64,000 nt of DNA from positions 46,007-110,006 of IMG/VR virus record IMGVR_UViG_3300028886_000029; one strand, given 5' to 3'. Positions 3,138-57,681 of this stretch are shown here, in pieces. The DNA is from a virus. Taxonomy: Duplodnaviria; Heunggongvirae; Uroviricota; Caudoviricetes. The notes below the pieces were generated by a model. It did no database searches and was not told where the DNA came from. It saw only the letters and a list, made by a program, of their open reading frames with translations. The first letter of the stretch is position 1; every line of letters starts with the position of its first letter. The position numbers and the translations under genes are program-made.

Positions 3138-3551
3138 ATGGAAGTAAAGTTTGATTTAAATGAAGAAAAATTCGCCGCACTATTAAATGATGAGATTAGT
3201 AAAATAACATCAGAAGACATACGCCAAATAATACTTGACGCAATGAAACAATATCTGATAGATGAGAACAACATAAAAAATTTATTAGTTACTTGTGACA
3301 GTTGGGGTAACAAAAAACCCTCTTATCTATTAGAAAGCACAATAAACAAAATAGATTTTAAGGAAGAATTTAATGAAGTGACGAATACCATTAAAGAATA
3401 TCTAAAGAAAGATGAAAATATTGAAAAACTAATGAAAAGTCTTTTTATGGACATATTACTTAATGGTATGAATAATATTATATGGGGTTCTTCTTTTAGA
3501 GATTCAATAAAGGATGAAATTAAAAATGAGTTATTTAATAAAAGATACTAA
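3138..3551 (+). CDS. Hypothetical protein
   Basis: 137-aa ORF in a co-directional gene string. Confidence 0.45.
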   Translation: MEVKFDLNEEKFAALLNDEISKITSEDIRQIILDAMKQYLIDENNIKNLLVTCDSWGNKKPSYLLESTINKIDFKEEFNEVTNTIKEYLKKDENIEKLMKSLFMDILLNGMNNIIWGSSFRDSIKDEIKNELFNKRY

Positions 3552-36034: not shown

Positions 36035-37309
36035 TTGTTAAATTATATGGGAGAAGTAAAAGAATACATCCATTTATTTGAAACTGAAAACGAATATAAT
36101 ACAAAAAGAAATTTTGATTATCTTGAGCCTTGGGTAAGTTATACTGAGGATAACACCAAGGTTAATTATAATATGACTGAGGAAGAAAGAAAATTCTCAA
36201 CACCGCTTACATTTGAAATAACAGGTGATGGTGATATTTATTGGAAAGCAAAATCAGATAACAGTTTACGAACAATAGAATACAAAAAAAACGATGAGGA
36301 TTGGGTAACAATCACCTCAAGCACTGGTGGTACCTCTATCACGGTGTCGTCAGGCGATACAGTGCTTTTTAGAGCACCGCAAGGTGTTACATATACAACA
36401 TTAAGTGACACATATGAAAAAGCTAATTTTTTTAGCGGTTGTACTTGCACTTTCAACGTTAAAGGTAATGTTATGTCACTGCTTGACGCAAATAATTTCA
36501 GCACGATGTCCTCGTTGACAGCTTCCTTGGTTTTTACTTGTTTGTTCAGGTATTGTACGGGTTTGACTGATGCAAGTAAACTTATTTTACCGGCAGATAA
36601 CTTGACCGTTGAATGTTATAGGGAAATGTTCGCAAATTGTTCAAACCTTGTTGGTGTGCCTAAACTACCTGCAATGAACCTCGGTGAAGGTTGTTACAAC
36701 GGTATGTTCCATGATTGTACAAATCTTACCACAGTACCTGAACTACCTGCGACAACATTAGCAAGTAACTGTTATGATTTTATGTTTGCGTCTGACACTG
36801 GTTTAACTGACGCAAGTGGGTTAGTATTACCTGCAACAACATTAGCAAATAATTGTTATAGTCAGATGTTCAGGGGTTGTACAAGTCTAACAACAACACC
36901 TGAATTACCTGCGACCACATTAGCTAATAGATGTTATTATTATATGTTCAGGGAATGTACAGGCTTAACCACTGCACCTGAGTTACCTGCGACTACATTA
37001 GCTGATGGTTGTTATTATAGGATGTTCTATGGTTGCACAAGTCTTACAACCGCACCTGAGTTACCTGCAACAACATTAGTAAATGAATGTTATAGAGGTA
37101 TGTTCGGATGGTGTACTGAACTTAATTATATTAAATGTCTTGCTACTGATATATCAGCAACTGATTGTACATTGGATTGGGTAGAAAGTGTGGCATCATC
37201 AGGTACATTTGTTGCGGCAAATGACGGTGTTGATTGGACAATAGGTGTTAACGGTATACCTGTTAATTGGAATAGAATAAATGAAAAATCCCAACCTTTA
37301 ACATTTTAG
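36035..37309 (+). CDS. Tail-fibre paralog with LRR-like LPATTL repeat domain (7 repeats); ends at an in-frame TAG
   Basis: Domain GNVMSL...LPADNLTVECYREMFANCSNL.../LPATTL...CY..MF..C..L.../NYIKCLATDISA...GIPVNW shared with 28645..29562 and both copies in the giant fibre. Confidence 0.65.
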   Translation: MLNYMGEVKEYIHLFETENEYNTKRNFDYLEPWVSYTEDNTKVNYNMTEEERKFSTPLTFEITGDGDIYWKAKSDNSLRTIEYKKNDEDWVTITSSTGGTSITVSSGDTVLFRAPQGVTYTTLSDTYEKANFFSGCTCTFNVKGNVMSLLDANNFSTMSSLTASLVFTCLFRYCTGLTDASKLILPADNLTVECYREMFANCSNLVGVPKLPAMNLGEGCYNGMFHDCTNLTTVPELPATTLASNCYDFMFASDTGLTDASGLVLPATTLANNCYSQMFRGCTSLTTTPELPATTLANRCYYYMFRECTGLTTAPELPATTLADGCYYRMFYGCTSLTTAPELPATTLVNECYRGMFGWCTELNYIKCLATDISATDCTLDWVESVASSGTFVAANDGVDWTIGVNGIPVNWNRINEKSQPLTF

Positions 37310-38071
37310 ATAACTAATGACGGTATAATCTATTGGGGGACACTGGGCACCGGTTTTACCAGAACTATTGAGTATAGTAAAGATAATGGCTCAACATGGA
37401 CATCCATAACTTCCACAAGAGGTGAAACACTTATACAAGTTGTTTCAGGTGACACCTTACAATTCCGTGGAAATAACGCAAATTATGCAACATATCCTTC
37501 AGGGGGAAAAAAAATATCATTTAACGGATTCATGAGTAGTACGGCAGGATTCAAAGTAAAAGGTAATATAATGTCGTTGATTAATAGTATTAATTTTGGT
37601 ACATTAACCACATTGGAAAATGCTTATACATTTTATGGATTATTTACTCATTGTACAGGTTTAACCGATGCAAGTGAACTACTGTTACCTGCAACAACAT
37701 TGACACAGAGTTGTTATGGTAGTATGTTCCAAGGTTGTGAAAGTTTAACTACAGCACCTTCGTTACCTGCAACTACATTAACAGAAGGCTGTTATTATGA
37801 AATGTTCATTGGTTGTACAAATCTAACCACAGCACCTGAATTACCTGCAACAACATTAACAGATTATTGTTATTATCAGATGTTCGAAGGTTGTACAAAT
37901 CTTAACTATATTAAATGTCTTGCAACTGATATATCAGCAAGTAATTGTACATATAATTGGGTAAATAGTGTAGCAAGTACAGGTACATTTGTTAAACACT
38001 CATCAATGGCATCTTGGACAACAGGTACAAGTGGTATTCCGACAGGTTGGACAGTACAGGATAATGTTTAG
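37310..38071 (+). CDS. Second tandem fibre-domain unit continuing in the same frame after TAG 37307-37309 (first ATG only at 37532); split gene, readthrough product or pseudogene
   Basis: Frame is open from 37310. ITNDGIIYWGTLGTGFTRTIEYSKDNGSTWTSITS... aligns to the N-terminal part of the paralog domain (PLTFEITGGGNIVWNARNTALTKTIEYSKDNGATWTSITS). The TAG sits at the conserved Glu of PLTF-E-ITG. Confidence 0.5.
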   Translation: MTNDGIIYWGTLGTGFTRTIEYSKDNGSTWTSITSTRGETLIQVVSGDTLQFRGNNANYATYPSGGKKISFNGFMSSTAGFKVKGNIMSLINSINFGTLTTLENAYTFYGLFTHCTGLTDASELLLPATTLTQSCYGSMFQGCESLTTAPSLPATTLTEGCYYEMFIGCTNLTTAPELPATTLTDYCYYQMFEGCTNLNYIKCLATDISASNCTYNWVNSVASTGTFVKHSSMASWTTGTSGIPTGWTVQDNV

Positions 38072-38097
38072 GTTAACAAACAATAAAAGACAAAAAA

Positions 38098-38135
38098 AGA
38101 GAGATAGGTATCTATCTCTCTTTTTCTTTTCTTTT
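38098..38135. terminator. Bidirectional terminator
   Basis: AGAGAGATAGGTATCTATCTCTCT palindrome followed by TTTTTCTTTTCTTTT. Confidence 0.6.
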
Positions 38136-38847
38136 AGATTTCAAATTCAAGTGGCAGATATTTTGGCTTATAATGTTCATCAATATATGAGACATTTGCC
38201 ATCATAGTGCCATTGACATCCTCAAAGTTATGGTTTCCACTATGGATATGGCCGCTGAAAAAATATTTCGGTTTTCGTTGTTTTATGTACTCATCAAGCA
38301 CCTCATTTCCAGCGTCATAACCATTGTTCCAACCTTGGTTAATGGTTCCCAATCCATTTATTGATGGGGAGTCATGTGAAATCACAATATCACAATCGTA
38401 AGGCATTTCGTTATAATAATATCCAAGTTGCTCATCATTAACCATGAAAGCCCAATTACCGAATATTTTACAATACGGTGTCCCAAATATTTTTAGTGTC
38501 TCAATACCGTTATCGGTCAGATACTCATAATCGTATGTGTTATTGTTCAATATAACAACCCTGTTTTTTGTTTTTTCGTTGAATATATGCAAATCCTCCT
38601 CATGAAGTCTTTTGCCAACGTAATCATGGTTACCCCAAATCATCACAACTTTACTCCATTCGTTTTTAAATGGAAGTGTGTTTATCCAATCAGCGAAATC
38701 AGTTTTAAACCACTCTGATTGAAATGAGTAGTAATGACTATGTGCTGGACAATTATCACCACATATAAGAAACAAATCAAATGGTGATATAATCACCGGT
38801 AAATTTCCGTGTAAATCACTGGTAACGATTACCTTTAATTTTCCCAT
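38134..38847 (-). CDS. Calcineurin-like metallophosphoesterase (second copy of the family in this window)
   Basis: TSDLHGN (DxH), CGDN (GD), WGNHD, ISHDSP, SGHIHSG (GHxH). Confidence 0.75.
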   Translation of the reverse strand: MGKLKVIVTSDLHGNLPVIISPFDLFLICGDNCPAHSHYYSFQSEWFKTDFADWINTLPFKNEWSKVVMIWGNHDYVGKRLHEEDLHIFNEKTKNRVVILNNNTYDYEYLTDNGIETLKIFGTPYCKIFGNWAFMVNDEQLGYYYNEMPYDCDIVISHDSPSINGLGTINQGWNNGYDAGNEVLDEYIKQRKPKYFFSGHIHSGNHNFEDVNGTMMANVSYIDEHYKPKYLPLEFEI

Positions 38848-38980
38848 ATACTAATATTTTTTTTTCTTTATACTTTTTTAGGGAATGATATACTTGTTTG
38901 CACAAGATTTACTATCTTAACGTTTACTTTCGATTCCGTTCATAGCCCCACTTCCCGATGGGGATTCCATTTATTTATTA
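38848..38980. ncRNA. Putative guide-RNA scaffold (tracrRNA/omegaRNA-like) region at the 3' end of the TnpB/Cas12f-like gene
   Basis: GC hairpin CCCCACTTCCCGATGGGG (38946-38963) immediately followed by ATTCCATTTATTTATT (38964-38979), which is complementary to the ATAAATTAAATGGAAT part of the CRISPR repeat. Overlaps the gene's stop codon. Strand and extent unknown. Confidence 0.3.
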
Positions 38981-40131
38981 TTAATTTCTTCTATTTTTTG
39001 TTCAATGCCAATTAATGCCTGTGGATGTAACCCCATGTTCTTAATATTAATTGCTGCATTTACATCTCTATCATGATGTTCACCACATATTGGACATATC
39101 CATTCTCTATCAGATAACTTCAGTTCCTTGTCAATGTATCCACATTTGTTACATGTCTTACTACTTGGTTCATATCTACCAATGAATACAATGTTCTTTC
39201 CACACCATTCACACTTGTATGTCAATTGTCTAACAAATTCATTCCATGCAACACTATTTATACTCTTTGCAAGATTATGATTCTGTGTCATACCAGTAAT
39301 GTTAAGATTCTCCATACAAAATGTGTCATATTCACCATTAATCAACATGGTTGTTAACTTATGAAGAAAATCATTTCTTCTGTTAGCAATTTTTCTATGT
39401 AACTTTGCTACATATAATTTTGCTTTTTCATGACGTTTACTATTTTTTTGTGTTCTGGAAAGCCATTGTTGTGCTTTTGCTAACTGTTGTTGTTTTGCTT
39501 CAAGATACTTAGGATTTCCGTACTTTGTACCGTCAGATAGAATTGCATAATCTTTAACACCTAAGTCAATGCCAACAGTTTTTTCCTCACATATCTTGGT
39601 TTTCGATACGTTTGGTTTATTGTCATCAACTACTATGGTACACCAATAATCACCACATTTATCTTTTGTAACAGTTAAAGTACCCAATTTTACTGTGTTT
39701 ACATCAAATTCGCAATTTTTAAGAAATTTAACTTTACCTATACATGGCACTGATACTCTCATGGTTTCAAAATCAAAGTGAACAGCAGCAATGTATTTAA
39801 CAGAATCAACACTATTTTTCTTTGATTTAAATTTAGGAAAGCCTTTTTTTGCTTTAAAGAATCTGGTATAGGCATTATCAAGGTTTCTAAGTGATTGTTG
39901 TAGACAAACGTTAGCACATTGTTTCAGCCAATCATGTTCACCGTCTTTTTTAAGTAAAGTAAGTTCTTTGGCCAGTTGTATATATGTAACATTTTTATGT
40001 TCCTTTTCCCAGGTTTCTTTTTTACGATTAAGTCCCCAATTATAGATAAAGCGAGCATTACCAAAGGCTTGTGAAAACAATTTTTGTTGTTTCACAGTTG
40101 GTTTAAGTTTATATTTATATGCTCTTGTCAT
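38971..40131 (-). CDS. TnpB / Cas12f-like RuvC-fold RNA-guided endonuclease candidate (IS605 OrfB family), 386 aa
   Basis: N-terminal MTRAYKYKLKPTVKQQKLFSQAFGNARFIYNWGL (TnpB hallmark). RuvC-I GIDLGVKDYAILSDG, RuvC-II TFCMENLNITGM, zinc finger CNKCGYIDKELKLSDREWICPICGEHH, RuvC-III DRDVNAAINI. Catalytic D/E/D all present. Confidence 0.75.
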   Translation of the reverse strand: MTRAYKYKLKPTVKQQKLFSQAFGNARFIYNWGLNRKKETWEKEHKNVTYIQLAKELTLLKKDGEHDWLKQCANVCLQQSLRNLDNAYTRFFKAKKGFPKFKSKKNSVDSVKYIAAVHFDFETMRVSVPCIGKVKFLKNCEFDVNTVKLGTLTVTKDKCGDYWCTIVVDDNKPNVSKTKICEEKTVGIDLGVKDYAILSDGTKYGNPKYLEAKQQQLAKAQQWLSRTQKNSKRHEKAKLYVAKLHRKIANRRNDFLHKLTTMLINGEYDTFCMENLNITGMTQNHNLAKSINSVAWNEFVRQLTYKCEWCGKNIVFIGRYEPSSKTCNKCGYIDKELKLSDREWICPICGEHHDRDVNAAINIKNMGLHPQALIGIEQKIEEINNK

Positions 40132-40170
40132 AAGATGAATAGATTTTTATTTTTTCTATTTATAAATAGT

Positions 40171-40333
40171 TTATTAATGTAAAAAAGTAAATAAAATTAC
40201 AACTTCTGTTCTTGTCAAGATGCCTCATGGCAGATGTTAGTCAACCATAAATTAAATGGAATTACAACCTGTCAGGCTTTTTAGGTTTGTTAGACTAGGT
40301 GTTAGTCAACCATAAATTAAATGGAATTACAAC
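40171..40333. CRISPR. Mini CRISPR-like array: degenerate repeat (40171-40203), spacer 1 (40204-40235), repeat (40236-40268), spacer 2 (40269-40300), repeat (40301-40333)
   Basis: Two identical 33-bp repeats GTTAGTCAACCATAAATTAAATGGAATTACAAC separated by a unique 32-bp spacer and preceded by another 32-bp unique segment plus a degenerate repeat (3' 22 nt 18/22 identical). Lies 40 bp from the TnpB/Cas12f-like gene start. A possible third spacer and a decayed repeat follow (40334-40398). Confidence 0.55.
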
Positions 40334-40398
40334 TTTCTCGTTCTATCAAATTGATTTTCCGAGCATTAACCCACACACCAATGGGTAATATTTCTTAT

Positions 40399-40857
40399 TT
40401 AGTATAAACAAGTATATTTTTTTATCCATTCCTCTTGGTTAGGATACCACTCAGGATATTTTTTGATATTTTCAATTATTCCGTCAAGTATTTTTTCATC
40501 CACATCAAGTGTACCACCTTGCCACCAGTTTTGTATATTCATGCTGAACCATCCCCCATCCCTTGTCCTCACGAACCAAAGGTTATTCTCATCATATTTT
40601 GGACATGAACACTCAACGAAATAATCTGTCTCTTTGGCATATAGCCAATCATGTTCAGGCATTTCTGACTCAAGCCAATGGTCATACAATGTTGTCTCTA
40701 TTGTCAGGTCATCATCATAAGGAACATTAACCATAATGTTTTTCGCCTCATCAGGTGTGATGACCCTTTCACATTTACAAATGTAATGTCTTGAGGGTGA
40801 TGACTTACCATCGTCCCAAAAATAATAATATTTTCCGATTTCAGGTATTGTTTCCAT
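40399..40857 (-). CDS. Hypothetical protein
   Basis: 152-aa ORF. Confidence 0.45.
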   Translation of the reverse strand: METIPEIGKYYYFWDDGKSSPSRHYICKCERVITPDEAKNIMVNVPYDDDLTIETTLYDHWLESEMPEHDWLYAKETDYFVECSCPKYDENNLWFVRTRDGGWFSMNIQNWWQGGTLDVDEKILDGIIENIKKYPEWYPNQEEWIKKYTCLY

Positions 40858-40868
40858 ATATTTTATTT

Positions 40869-41270
40869 TTAAATCTCATAAAGAAAAGGGTGTTCTCTGT
40901 CTGGTAATTCAGGCCAATGTTCTTTAGATGCTTCTTCGGTATTTTCAACCAATTTGATAATACTCATATTAGAATCGGTACAAGGGCACCATACACCATA
41001 AGGAATACTACCTTTAATTCCATCAGCACCAACAGTGAATTCATCTACATCAGTAAGATTATGTTCCTTACAAAAATTGATTACAAGGTTAACTATTTGC
41101 TCATGCAAATCAGAAAACGCGTCATGAAGTTCAGGGTCACGATTAGTTTCTGTTTCAAAAACAGCCTCATAATAATCCCTACTTCCAACCCAAATCTCAG
41201 GTTTAGTATCGTCATACTTGGGATATTTCTCAAGGAGTTTCTTCTCTTCTTCTGTCAGTTTCTTATACAT
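40869..41270 (-). CDS. Hypothetical protein
   Basis: 133-aa ORF. Confidence 0.45.
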   Translation of the reverse strand: MYKKLTEEEKKLLEKYPKYDDTKPEIWVGSRDYYEAVFETETNRDPELHDAFSDLHEQIVNLVINFCKEHNLTDVDEFTVGADGIKGSIPYGVWCPCTDSNMSIIKLVENTEEASKEHWPELPDREHPFLYEI

Positions 41271-45351: not shown

Positions 45352-46215
45352 TTAGACTTTAACAAAACTAAGTGCCCTATGCAACTTTTTAGTCACATCA
45401 TTAATAACTTGCCTAATCCTTTCCGATGTCAGTCCAAGTTCCTCACCGATTTCATAGTTATTATACTCTTTGTCATAACCAATGCCAAAGTACATTTTGA
45501 CTATTGTTCTATCTCTTTCATTAAGCATGGACAACAATTTGCTGACAAGTGTTTTGGTATATTCCTTGTCAATTGTCTCCTCATACTCATTATAACTTGC
45601 GGTTTTGTCAGTAAATGCTTTAGTGTCTTCCAAAGTGTTCTGGTCTTCGTCAATGTACTCATTAACTGACTCAGTTGTGATGTCAAACACATCACTCTGT
45701 TTGAGTATTGTGATGTCAAAATCTTTTTTCAACATATCAATTATCTCATCTTCGGTTGGATACCTGCCATTAAGACCAAAATACTTGTTTTTAACCTTGG
45801 TCATTTTGTTACCCAATTTAATGTTGTTTGTTCTTCTGACAAACATATTGGTGTTCATTATGTAATACTGAATACTTCTCCTGATGTACCAAACAGCATA
45901 TGACAAAAACCTTGTTCCCTTAGTAGTATCATATTTGTCAATATCATTTATGACTGACATAAGACCGAGGTTACCCTCGTCAATTAAATCCATGATGTTA
46001 TCGTTGTTGGCATACCTTTTCGCAATAGCCACAACAAATCTCTGATTACTGTTTATGAGTTTTTCTTTCGCCTCATTGTCCCCATTTTTTATTTTAAGTA
46101 TAAGGTCATACTCCTCCTCCGCTGAAAGTACGGGATATTTATTGATTTCCCTAAAATACCTTGCAAGTGTGTCACTCCTCTCAATAAGATTCCCTTTAAT
46201 AGTCTTAATGTCCAT
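45352..46215 (-). CDS. Sigma-70-family RNA polymerase sigma factor
   Basis: Region 2 (LINSNQRFVVAIAKRY...DLIDEGNLGLMSVINDID...FLSYAVWYIRRSI) and region 4 HTH (ERDRTIVKMYFGI...EIGEELGLTSERIRQV). Confidence 0.75.
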   Translation of the reverse strand: MDIKTIKGNLIERSDTLARYFREINKYPVLSAEEEYDLILKIKNGDNEAKEKLINSNQRFVVAIAKRYANNDNIMDLIDEGNLGLMSVINDIDKYDTTKGTRFLSYAVWYIRRSIQYYIMNTNMFVRRTNNIKLGNKMTKVKNKYFGLNGRYPTEDEIIDMLKKDFDITILKQSDVFDITTESVNEYIDEDQNTLEDTKAFTDKTASYNEYEETIDKEYTKTLVSKLLSMLNERDRTIVKMYFGIGYDKEYNNYEIGEELGLTSERIRQVINDVTKKLHRALSFVKV

Positions 46216-56418: not shown

Positions 56419-57681
56419 TTATGATTCCATCAGAGGTTTTACTTTTTCCTCTGTAGGGAGTTCTTTGACCTTACGAATGAGAAGCCTTGCAGTCATTCTT
56501 TTGCCATTTAGATATGGCCTATCATATTTTTCGTTACCTTCTATATATAGAGACTTCATATCTTCAGACTTTTCGGTAATTCCAATGACTTCAAATTGAT
56601 TGGGATTGTGTTTGCCAAAATAAGTAATAGGAACACCTATCACCCCATCATAGTCCTTCGGAATATCCTCAACCCTGCCAACCTCAATAGCATCATAGTT
56701 ATCGTATTTAGGATAGTCAGTAGGGTTGTACTTCTTTGTCAGGCCGATGAACGCCCTTCTTTTGCTATGCTCAAGGTTGGTAAACCAACAAGCTTGTGTA
56801 ACCCTCGCCATAACTTCTCCGCCAATCTCTACCCAACCAGTTCCTTCTTTCTTCGTCTTGACGATTTCTTCCTTGTACTCGTCAGTAATGTGGAAATACA
56901 TTTCTCCACCGAGAGGTTTGTAGCCGAGCCACATCTTATTGTCTTTAAGGTAAGGGAAAATCTCCTTATAGGTGATTGCGGAGTGGTTGCCGACAATGAT
57001 GAATTTCTTACCCATCGTCATAATCTGTTCCACAAACTGACGGAACAGACTGAACGGAGGATTCGTTACTACGATGTCGCAGTTCCTCATAATCTCCTTG
57101 CACTCGTCGCTATCAAACGAGCCGTTGCCCTTGAGGAAATAGGTATCAATGTCGCTTTCATCAACATATTCACTATCCTCTTTCTCTCCGTTGTATTCCC
57201 ACTTGATTCCGCACTTCTCAAAATCGTACTCCTTTACCACACCGACACCATTGGGATTCCATTGGGTACAGATAAGTTTCTTAACCCCAAGTTTATGAAA
57301 CTTGCAGATAAAATACCTGCCGAAATTGCTCTGTCCCTCATTGAACAACTTGTCGCAAGGGCAATAGATTACTTTACCCTTAAAGTGTTCTTCATAATGT
57401 TTGAGTTCATCCACGATGTCGGCAAGACGAGTGTAAAATTCGTCATTCTTTGCTTTCTTTGCCTTTGTAAGATTGGAGTTCCTTGTGCTCTTCTCCTCTA
57501 CTTCTTCTTCGGAAAAGATTTTCGCCCCTTCTTCTTTCTTCTTCGGAACAAATGTATCCTTCTTATAGTAGATGGTAGAATAACCCTTCACGGGGCGGAG
57601 TGCCCAATTACCCGTAAGAGTGTTGAAGAAGAGTTCAAATCCCTGCGGAACTTTGATGTTTGGGTTATTAAATGTTTTCAT
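56419..57681 (-). CDS. N6-adenine DNA methyltransferase (NPPF motif IV)
   Basis: CDIVVTNPPF catalytic motif IV. Upstream Gly-rich/acidic region consistent with AdoMet binding. 420 aa. Confidence 0.65.
   Translation of the reverse strand: MKTFNNPNIKVPQGFELFFNTLTGNWALRPVKGYSTIYYKKDTFVPKKKEEGAKIFSEEEVEEKSTRNSNLTKAKKAKNDEFYTRLADIVDELKHYEEHFKGKVIYCPCDKLFNEGQSNFGRYFICKFHKLGVKKLICTQWNPNGVGVVKEYDFEKCGIKWEYNGEKEDSEYVDESDIDTYFLKGNGSFDSDECKEIMRNCDIVVTNPPFSLFRQFVEQIMTMGKKFIIVGNHSAITYKEIFPYLKDNKMWLGYKPLGGEMYFHITDEYKEEIVKTKKEGTGWVEIGGEVMARVTQACWFTNLEHSKRRAFIGLTKKYNPTDYPKYDNYDAIEVGRVEDIPKDYDGVIGVPITYFGKHNPNQFEVIGITEKSEDMKSLYIEGNEKYDRPYLNGKRMTARLLIRKVKELPTEEKVKPLMES

Follow-up and report, generated by a model that had tools for sequence, protein, structure and literature searches.

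A TnpB-encoding mobile element of a large phage with two predicted paralogous guide RNA scaffolds and a miniature CRISPR-like array

The origin of CRISPR (short palindromic repeats that are clustered and regularly interspaced) arrays and of trans-activating CRISPR RNAs (tracrRNAs) out of the guide RNAs of transposons is under active study, and work on TranC took it up in 2025. According to secondary descriptions of that work (Jin et al., Cell 2025, via PMC13565253, PMC13639567 and bioRxiv 10.64898/2026.03.27.714800), TranC systems combine TnpB-like effectors with arrays derived from a split right-end RNA; the same sources describe CauTranC9, a TranC of ~414 aa with ~38-bp repeats in a Caudoviricetes genome. 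A 2026 screen, as summarized, exclusively selected the layout in which the array lies downstream. In the structure of the ISDra2 omegaRNA (right-end RNA), positions -6 to -2 pair with positions ~-102 to -106, and an A at -1 stands before the guide (PMC10097598). TnpBs that are linked to DDE transposases, as well as solo TnpBs, have symmetric inverted ends; solo TnpBs presumably depend on mobilisation in trans, and conserved associations of Cas12 with arrays are almost always downstream (Altae-Tran et al. 2023, PMC10691335). Viral mini-arrays and single repeat units, finally, carry repeats identical to those of the host and depend on host Cas proteins (Medvedeva et al. 2019; PMC11656645). Here we compare with these systems a tnpB locus from a Caudoviricetes virus. 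It lies in a stretch of 64,000 nt (positions 46,007 to 110,006 of IMG/VR record IMGVR_UViG_3300028886_000029), which was analysed as a whole; we call this stretch the window and give all coordinates in its numbering.

The locus is a mobile element of 1,537 bp (38881–40417, minus strand) that comprises, in this order, the left end, an upstream omegaRNA-like scaffold with an array, tnpB, a 3' omegaRNA scaffold and the right end. The explanation that we favour, and consider probable, is that an ISDra2-type TnpB resides in a mobile element with two paralogous guide scaffolds, one of which carries a mini-array, and that the locus represents a TranC-like intermediate with an unusual layout. For its structural and homology claims the comparative sequence evidence is strong; that the spacers of the array guide cleavage is plausible.

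tnpB (38971–40131, minus strand) was assigned from the list of open reading frames together with family and structure matches. Its 386-aa product matches the Pfam families HTH_OrfB_IS605 (E value 8e-17), OrfB_IS605 (1e-24) and Cas12f1-like_TNB, a zinc ribbon (7e-23). It reaches 328 bits with NCBIfam guided_TnpB (cutoff 100) and 376 bits with IS200_TnpB, under the exception-level cutoff of 425. The catalytic RuvC residues D189, E274 and D356 and the zinc-finger cysteines C327, C330, C346 and C349 show no variation among 25 homologues, and they align to ISDra2 TnpB. Deinococcus ISDra2 TnpB (8bf8/8h1j) is also the best solved relative, with an E value of 2e-75 in the PDB over residues 3–368. An initial annotation of this DNA had described a 386-aa TnpB with a complete RuvC triad and zinc finger, which the family matches and the homologues bear out. 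It had also called the protein Cas12f-like, and this does not hold: the Cas12f chains in the PDB match with E values of only 1e-6 to 1e-5. Solved LaTranC matches at 9e-36, in the C-terminal part only, so that the window protein is far closer to ISDra2 TnpB than to LaTranC. By its sequence, the protein is a canonical TnpB of the ISDra2 type with intact D/E/D triad and zinc finger.

The boundaries of the element follow from an empty site and from relatives that share its ends. The phage contig IMGVR_UViG_3300021255_003464 (L014) is near-identical, with 98% amino acid identity in the flanking genes. In it, a 152-aa gene is directly followed by a Metallophos-family gene, with the sequence ...GGA TAAAAAA GTATAAAG... 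at the junction. In the window the minus strand instead holds the end of the 152-aa gene, the element and then the Metallophos-family gene; a short AT-rich stretch precedes the first hairpin of the upstream scaffold, and ~90 nt of structured non-coding DNA separate tnpB from the Metallophos-family gene. The occupied site reads GGA-TAAAAAA-ATATACTTG ... CATTCCC-TAAAAAA-GTATAAAG. The 7-bp target-site duplication TAAAAAA (minus-strand reading) flanks the element on the left (40418–40424) and on the right (38874–38880), where its first T doubles as position -1 of the 3' scaffold. The left terminal inverted repeat (40397–40417, minus strand; ATATACTTGTTTATAC...) pairs with 38888–38908 and is truncated at its 5' end; the right one (38881–38903, minus strand; GTGCAAACAAGTATATCATTCCC) overlaps the 3' end of the scaffold. 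The inverted ends of the relatives measure 23 bp (GGGAATGATATACTTGTTTACAC, which is the full form of the left end, and GTGTAAACAAGTATATCATTCCC) and are complete in L011, L036, L008, L038, L124 and L129. Target duplications of 8 bp are found at L008 (TTATATAT), L011 (TAAAAGTA), L124 (TAAAACAA) and L123 (TAAAAATA). The relatives have the same ends in unrelated genomic contexts, and in the window the end motif occurs at this element only.

These symmetric 23-bp ends and 7–8-bp duplications are not of the IS200/IS605 type. A Y1 TnpA is found neither in the element nor among the strong family matches listed for the window's open reading frames, and no transposase of any kind lies inside the element or appears among the best 25 Pfam families listed for the 63 open reading frames of the window. 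An IS608-like boundary, with a TTAC-type target and a guide following ...GCAAAC, was considered and ruled out; we place the end at ...CATTCCC because of the empty site, the target duplications and the covariation of a CTTG/CAAG hairpin. The locus is evidently a discrete insertion, a predicted non-autonomous transposable element of ~1.5 kb in a large phage genome. The initial annotation had set transposon ends around tnpB against its CRISPR reading. Such ends exist, as the inverted repeats, the target duplication and the empty site demonstrate, but they do not remove the array, because the array lies within the mobile element.

Guide RNA scaffolds were modelled on both sides of tnpB, with a covariance model R1 built from 11 upstream scaffolds only and a model R2 built from 13 3' scaffolds only. 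The 3' scaffold of the window (38880–38964, minus strand; 85 nt; 103 bits with R2) starts just past the stop codon and extends exactly to the element's right end. It comprises hairpin 1' (CCCCA-UCGGGAAG-UGGGG), hairpin 2' (GAACG..CGUU), the closing helix GAUA:UAUC, a small hairpin (CUUG..CAAG), the pseudoknot strand UUCCC and a U at -1. Covariation supports the first stem (CCCA/TGGG, CCCG/CGGG, CCCAG/CTGGG), the second stem (AACG/CGTT, CTCA/TGAG) and the small hairpin (CTTG/CAAG, CCTG/CAGG, CCAG/CTGG). The predicted RNA sits at the canonical position of an omegaRNA, 3' of the gene, with its pseudoknot beside the guide. Since it ends at the transposon boundary, its guide would be flanking DNA, which in the window reads AAAAAAGTATAAAG...

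The upstream scaffold (40297–40387, minus strand; 113.7 bits with R1) consists of a leader and repeat 1. The leader contributes hairpins 1 and 2: hairpin 1 lies at 40386–40369 with the loop UUGGUGUG (in DNA, ACCCA-TTGGTGTG-TGGGT), and hairpin 2 is GCUCG...CGAG. The last module contains the closing helix AGUU:GACU, the hairpin CCAU..AUGG, the pseudoknot strand ACACC and a U at -1. Both scaffolds are built in the same order. Hairpin 1 with its 8-nt loop is followed by a linker of ~4 nt, hairpin 2, AAG/AAA, a 4-bp closing helix around the small hairpin, an A, the 5-nt pseudoknot strand, a U and variable sequence. In both, the 5-nt strand is complementary to the loop of hairpin 1.

Each model recognizes the scaffolds from which the other was built. 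R1 finds the 3' scaffold at full length in 13/13 loci that contain one (E values 4e-7 to 4e-3) and matches window positions 38964–38880 with 35.2 bits (2e-6). R2 finds every upstream scaffold (1.5e-6 to 8e-4, and 0.026 for a copy cut by a contig end); its match to window positions 40387–40297 is full-length with 38.1 bits (2.3e-5), and the empty-site locus yields no match. Leader and repeat 1 together are therefore a paralogue of the 3' scaffold, a conclusion for which the sequence support is strong. In a joint alignment of both scaffolds, 95.5% of the pair cells hold standard pairs, compared with 72% in shuffles and 36–44% when the partners are slid by 1–3 columns, but this alignment was fitted to the helices of the models and favours them; changes on both sides occur in 20 of the 25 pairs. 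The pseudoknot and the revised closing helix are independent tests because neither is part of the models. Of their cells, 95% and 96% are paired, with three and four doubly changed pairs, respectively. The pseudoknot reads GGUGU:ACACC in the upstream copies, with wobble or single-base variants in a few (repeat 2 of the window, L036). The 3' copies have GGGAA:UUCCC instead, and L125, a relative with no array, has GGUAA:UUACC. A closing helix GUUG:UAAC proposed by RNAalifold was replaced by AGUU:GACU, which we prefer: its pairs have changed in a compensatory way, the two paralogues have it in parallel, and with it the pseudoknot strand stays free.

Within the helices, G.U cells outnumber A.C cells by 30 to 4, which places the RNA on the tnpB strand. 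The initial annotation had likened the 3' handle of the repeat, ...GGAATTACAAC, to that of Cas12f repeats. Because the RNA runs on the tnpB strand, where this handle is the reverse complement of the 5' end, the likeness is inapplicable as stated. The 37-nt repeat corresponds to the last scaffold module and includes most of the closing helix, the small hairpin, the pseudoknot strand and the U at -1. Unit 1, joined to the leader, is predicted to be a complete natural single-guide RNA. Units 2 and beyond have no hairpins 1 and 2, and their ACACC strand matches the hairpin-1 loop of the upstream scaffold, not that of the 3' scaffold.

The array itself was delimited by an exact repeat search. Two exact copies of a 33-nt repeat (GTTGTAATTCCATTTAATTTATGGTTGACTAAC; 40301–40333 and 40236–40268) enclose unique sequence; 0/100 shuffles gave any match, and the window holds no further copy. 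That annotation had described 33-bp repeats and 32-bp spacers. The two exact copies stand, but the unit is better drawn as a 37-nt repeat with a 28-nt spacer because the next 4 nt are conserved in relatives: they are ACCT, or ATCT in the second copy of the window, and ACCT or a near variant follows in every locus. All parts lie on the minus strand. Repeat 1 (GTTGTAATTCCATTTAATTTATGGTTGACTAACACCT; 40297–40333) is followed by spacer 1 (AGTCTAACAAACCTAAAAAGCCTGACAG; 40269–40296), repeat 2 (40232–40268; 34.6 bits with R1), whose pseudoknot strand ACAUC introduces one G.U pair, and spacer 2 (GCCATGAGGCATCTTGACAAGAACAGAA; 40204–40231), both spacers being unique sequence. The array ends in a truncated repeat (GTTGTAATTTTATTTAC; 40187–40203). 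As the initial annotation had recognized, it is a degenerate third copy, which shares the first ~17 nt (82–86% identity over 22 nt) and has neither the 3' half of the hairpin nor the closing helix nor the pseudoknot strand. The same truncated array end is found in L026, L002, L035, L037, L038 and L129. With at least two near-identical repeats and unique spacers of uniform length, the locus has the form of a CRISPR array.

Comparison with close relatives revealed spacer turnover. TnpB is 94–97% identical to that of the window on two IMG/VR contigs and one metagenome contig (L001/L026, L002). Relative to the window, L026 and L002 are 96–100% identical in the leader, 97–100% in the repeat and 94–97% in the nucleotide sequence of tnpB. 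Each has three spacers, which are unrelated to the two of the window and to one another; the best mutual identity of 45–66% is the chance level. Leader and repeat are thus conserved while the spacers are fully replaced, the behaviour of a CRISPR array and the outcome that the initial annotation had suggested looking for in related phages. Full-length spacers measure 28–30 nt in six different lineages. A 9-mer, AGCCTGACA, is common to spacer 1 of the window (40269–40296) and spacer 1 of L002 at an offset of 5 nt. It could point to a common target region; as a sign of a shared target we judged it probably due to chance, ~100 spacer pairs having been compared. Both viral contigs with the closest relatives, L001 and L002 (IMG metagenome 3300021426), end inside tnpB, which points to an assembly interrupted by multiple copies or variants of the element in that sample.

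More distant relatives retain the module. Arrays with one spacer are found in L035 (TnpB 88% identical), L037 (77%), L129 (70%) and L124 (68%), as well as in L008 (83%), where the spacer is short; L038 (73%) has two spacers. In L011, L036 and L042 (68–79%) a single repeat is followed by unique sequence. In a neighbour-joining tree the lineages with the module form one clade that extends down to 68% TnpB identity; L123 is the sole member that has lost the upstream module, and the module is absent from the sister clade at 62–66% identity (L003, L027, L125). The association of TnpB and array therefore spans 68–97% TnpB identity, always within the element, and position and orientation of the module in the element are constant. 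Among GenBank phages there was no relative at the DNA level, and protein relatives were at most 43% identical; a protein scan of a genome collection gave relatives of up to 47% identity, none with the leader or repeat motif. A degenerate repeat pattern found, beyond two true relatives, only chance matches in coding sequence in IMG/VR, and an Rfam scan of 38000–41000 returned nothing relevant.

How does the locus compare with the systems introduced above? As in TranC, described from secondary sources, a TnpB-sized RuvC nuclease lies beside a short CRISPR array with no cas1/cas2, the repeats match the 3' part of the right-end RNA, and a canonical right-end scaffold is retained. Unlike in those descriptions, the array lies upstream of the gene, whereas characterised TranC and Cas12 arrays are downstream, and it stems from a duplicated scaffold with its own pseudoknot rather than from the right-end RNA itself. 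The split occurs before the last stem and leaves no repeat:anti-repeat duplex, and the whole system is carried within a mobile element that has inverted ends and target duplications, again different from TranC as described there. In short, the repeat is homologous to the last scaffold module, as the TranC comparison would require, but a duplicated scaffold acted as donor, the split falls elsewhere, and the use of the leader in trans is our proposal. Compared with Cas12f, the split is likewise not at the repeat:anti-repeat (stem 4), and a candidate anti-repeat is not conserved (see below).

Like ISDra2 (PDB 8H1J, 8EXA; PMC10097598), both scaffolds place a 5-nt pseudoknot strand and then a single linker nucleotide ahead of the guide, and the 3' scaffold begins at the 3' end of the gene and stops at the transposon boundary. 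In contrast to ISDra2, the element has no Y1 TnpA, its scaffold, with ~85 nt outside the open reading frame, is shorter, and its symmetric 23-bp ends with 7–8-bp duplications differ from the asymmetric hairpin ends of ISDra2, which makes no duplication. ISDra2 also has no counterpart of the second, internal scaffold with its own array. The symmetric ends, and a tnpB 3' end less than 250 bp from the end of the element, resemble the DDE-linked and solo TnpBs of PMC10691335, in which no internal upstream scaffold or array is described. With viral mini-arrays (PMC11656645) the locus shares its 1–3 spacers, its location in a virus, the lack of adjacent adaptation genes and a presumed role in competition between viruses. 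Unlike theirs, its repeat matches no sequenced host and is homologous to the guide scaffold of the adjacent TnpB. The locus has the appearance of a natural intermediate that links the guide RNA of a transposon to a CRISPR array.

We propose the following mechanism. The 3' scaffold, with flanking DNA as its guide, would serve the usual selfish or homing role of TnpB. The upstream scaffold is a diverged duplicate that has its own pseudoknot sequence and a guide encoded within the element, and reiteration of its last 37-nt module together with a 28–29-nt guide has produced the mini-array. Transcription, on the tnpB strand, would run from the left end across the leader and the array. TnpB would load unit 1 as a natural single-guide RNA, and units 2 and beyond would have to be completed in trans by hairpins 1 and 2 of the leader, with GGUGU:ACACC as the connecting pseudoknot. 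In that case the leader would serve as a built-in tracrRNA that does without a classical repeat:anti-repeat duplex. The resulting complexes would cleave DNA that matches the spacers, the presumed targets being competing phages, other mobile elements or the host. The suggestion of the initial annotation that this is a TnpB in transition to CRISPR association agrees with the nature of the repeat, a duplicated module of the omegaRNA scaffold of this very TnpB. A more far-reaching picture, which we advance tentatively and hold to be rather doubtful, combines the independent birth of a CRISPR-type array in a still-mobile transposon, two orthogonal scaffolds (one for homing, one for a reprogrammable array), a leader-tracrRNA that acts through a pseudoknot only, spacer gain without element-encoded Cas1-Cas2, and a portable weapon passed between rumen or gut phages.

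Several observations weigh against a functional array. The energies of single-sequence folds are unremarkable (z -0.7 to -1.1), and with z about -1 the evidence for the scaffolds is comparative, not thermodynamic. The arrays are tiny, with 1–3 spacers, some of only 13–21 nt, and at some loci a single repeat runs into AT-rich sequence and possibly has no guide. Protospacers for ~15 spacers were found neither in the window and the fetched loci nor in GenBank phages, PLSDB plasmids or E. coli genomes, and two exact 20-mers had no match in IMG/VR. There was no strong match to cas1, cas2 or cas4 among the best 25 families listed for the 63 window open reading frames; in the searches made, neither an adaptation module nor a cognate host system was found. 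For units 2 and beyond, with hairpins 1 and 2 missing, a 5-bp pseudoknot is a weak basis for assembly in trans.

Some of these points would suit a simpler explanation, which we regard as unlikely: the upstream module may be a second omegaRNA with a fixed guide, in which the leader-joined unit alone functions and the additional repeats are non-adaptive by-products of slippage or recombination. L011, L036 and L042 carry just one repeat, later units have no hairpins 1 and 2, no strong adaptation-gene match occurs among the families listed, and truncated spacers and decaying repeats are seen (repeat 3 of L026, spacer 2 of L002). Slippage, however, copies spacers and makes none that are new, yet every spacer is unique; full-length spacers keep to 28–30 nt in independent lineages, and the repeats within a locus stay identical, pseudoknot strand included. 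Less probable still, the repeats could be inert debris of nested or tandem right-end insertions that never acted as guide RNAs. Their homology to the terminal module of the right-end scaffold would be expected from such an origin, and the element is mobile and leaves decayed copies, such as L130 (tnpB lost) and L123 (upstream module lost). But the upstream copy has no inverted-end sequence (TATATCATTCCC), and the module keeps a constant position and orientation in the element. Its own pseudoknot pair stays complementary down to 68% protein identity and compensatory changes occur in all helices; debris would not be expected to maintain RNA pairing. Spacer length is uniform.

It is quite improbable that the locus is a phage mini-CRISPR array that relies on a host Cas effector and host Cas1-Cas2 against related phages, with tnpB nearby only incidentally. 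Viral mini-arrays of 1–2 spacers that target related viruses are known (PMC11656645), the element has no cas genes, and the fixed length of the spacers points to an integrase that works as a ruler. Known viral mini-arrays, however, have repeats identical to those of the host, whereas the 24-nt core of this repeat is absent from 185,579 species genomes; the repeat is paralogous to this TnpB's own scaffold, and the array travels inside the tnpB element at every insertion site. By its repeat sequence the array is not a host array. The model of the initial annotation, a minimal type V/Cas12f-like system whose tracrRNA anti-repeat, located at the gene's 3' end, would pair with the core of the repeat, we consider very unlikely. 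The GC hairpin CCCCACTTCCCGATGGGG on which it drew (38946–38963, plus strand) and the flanking ATTCCATTTATTT are both present. The hairpin does belong to a guide RNA scaffold, being hairpin 1' of the 3' scaffold, and the adjoining segment is complementary to the repeat over 13 nt with one mismatch, a length that only 7/300 shuffles of the 200-nt region reach. The segment, in contrast, falls outside the conserved scaffold. It is lost in L026 (AATTAGAGT; 95% amino acid identity, repeat different at one base) and L035 (AAATAGAAT; repeat 34/37 identical), mutated in L032 (AAATAGATT; the repeat of L032 is not on the contig) and absent from L008, L011 and L038, and the protein is TnpB-like rather than Cas12f-like. 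We therefore rejected a tracrRNA-style anti-repeat at the stop codon as not conserved and probably due to chance. Against these alternatives, the TnpB element with two paralogous scaffolds and a mini-array remains the probable explanation.

On this explanation, the locus would document a different route to an array: a whole scaffold is duplicated, the pseudoknot of the copy diverges, and its last module is reiterated, all within an element that still moves from one phage genome to another. The 386-aa nuclease may accept short guides (~37-nt repeat), and one protein would naturally have a pair of orthogonal scaffolds. The acquisition of spacers with no linked cas1/cas2 would need explaining. 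Should the array be inactive, the locus still documents array-like by-products of TnpB elements.

Further features lie in or next to the element. A simple scan for a hairpin followed by a T-rich run made terminator-like calls on the plus strand at 38946–38963 and 40369–40386, the first hairpins of the two scaffolds. We rejected both as terminators: no plus-strand gene ends there, and the hairpins covary within the scaffolds. Between array and tnpB, a perfect 14-bp palindrome was read in the sequence (40156–40169, minus strand; CTATTTATAAATAG), 25 nt 5' of the tnpB start in a conserved AT-rich stretch. It is exact in most loci examined that carry the array module, has one substitution in L011, L124 and L129, and is missing in L026 and L042. 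The palindrome is possibly part of an operator or a promoter.

Two groups of relatives have unusual boundaries. L125, L126 and L127 (66% identity, no upstream module) have an identical left flank that includes two genes, and three unrelated right flanks, each of which starts directly after ...TATATAGTTACC. Either a larger mobile unit has tnpB at its right edge, or the guide flank turns over at a fixed left junction. A search of IMG/VR with the leader pattern recovered L130 (IMGVR_UViG_3300038345_000251, 392.8 kb; reverse strand, near positions 3444–3534 of the locus), a variant with an extra nucleotide. It occupies the same insertion site as L038 and retains the left inverted end, the two hairpins and a single repeat, but neither tnpB nor the right end; ~190 nt of other sequence follow the repeat before the right flank of L038. 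L130 would be a decayed copy or, alternatively, a guide module that stands alone.

The surroundings are phage-like, as the initial annotation had assumed. Open reading frames of the window match PHROG families (helicase, RNA ligase, methyltransferase) and Pfam families (BACON, sigma-70 factor, EcoRI-like methylase), the closest contigs are IMG/VR viral contigs, and TnpB relatives lie on contigs of 190–414 kb. Record labels (STEW19, XIEF21, TONG22) hint, by their names, at assemblies from the ruminant gut. The window looks like part of a large phage, and the BACON domain hints at a Bacteroidota host. The EcoRI-like adenine methyltransferase is accompanied in the window by a match to a type II restriction enzyme (e.g. 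56419–57681, minus strand), and besides the sigma-70 factor and the BACON-domain protein there are a GmrSD_N protein and a helicase of the UvrD type. Adjoining the insertion site of the element, two neighbouring plus-strand genes (36035–37309 and 37532–38071) encode paralogous, leucine-rich-repeat-like proteins with LPATTL..CY..MF..CT.LT units.

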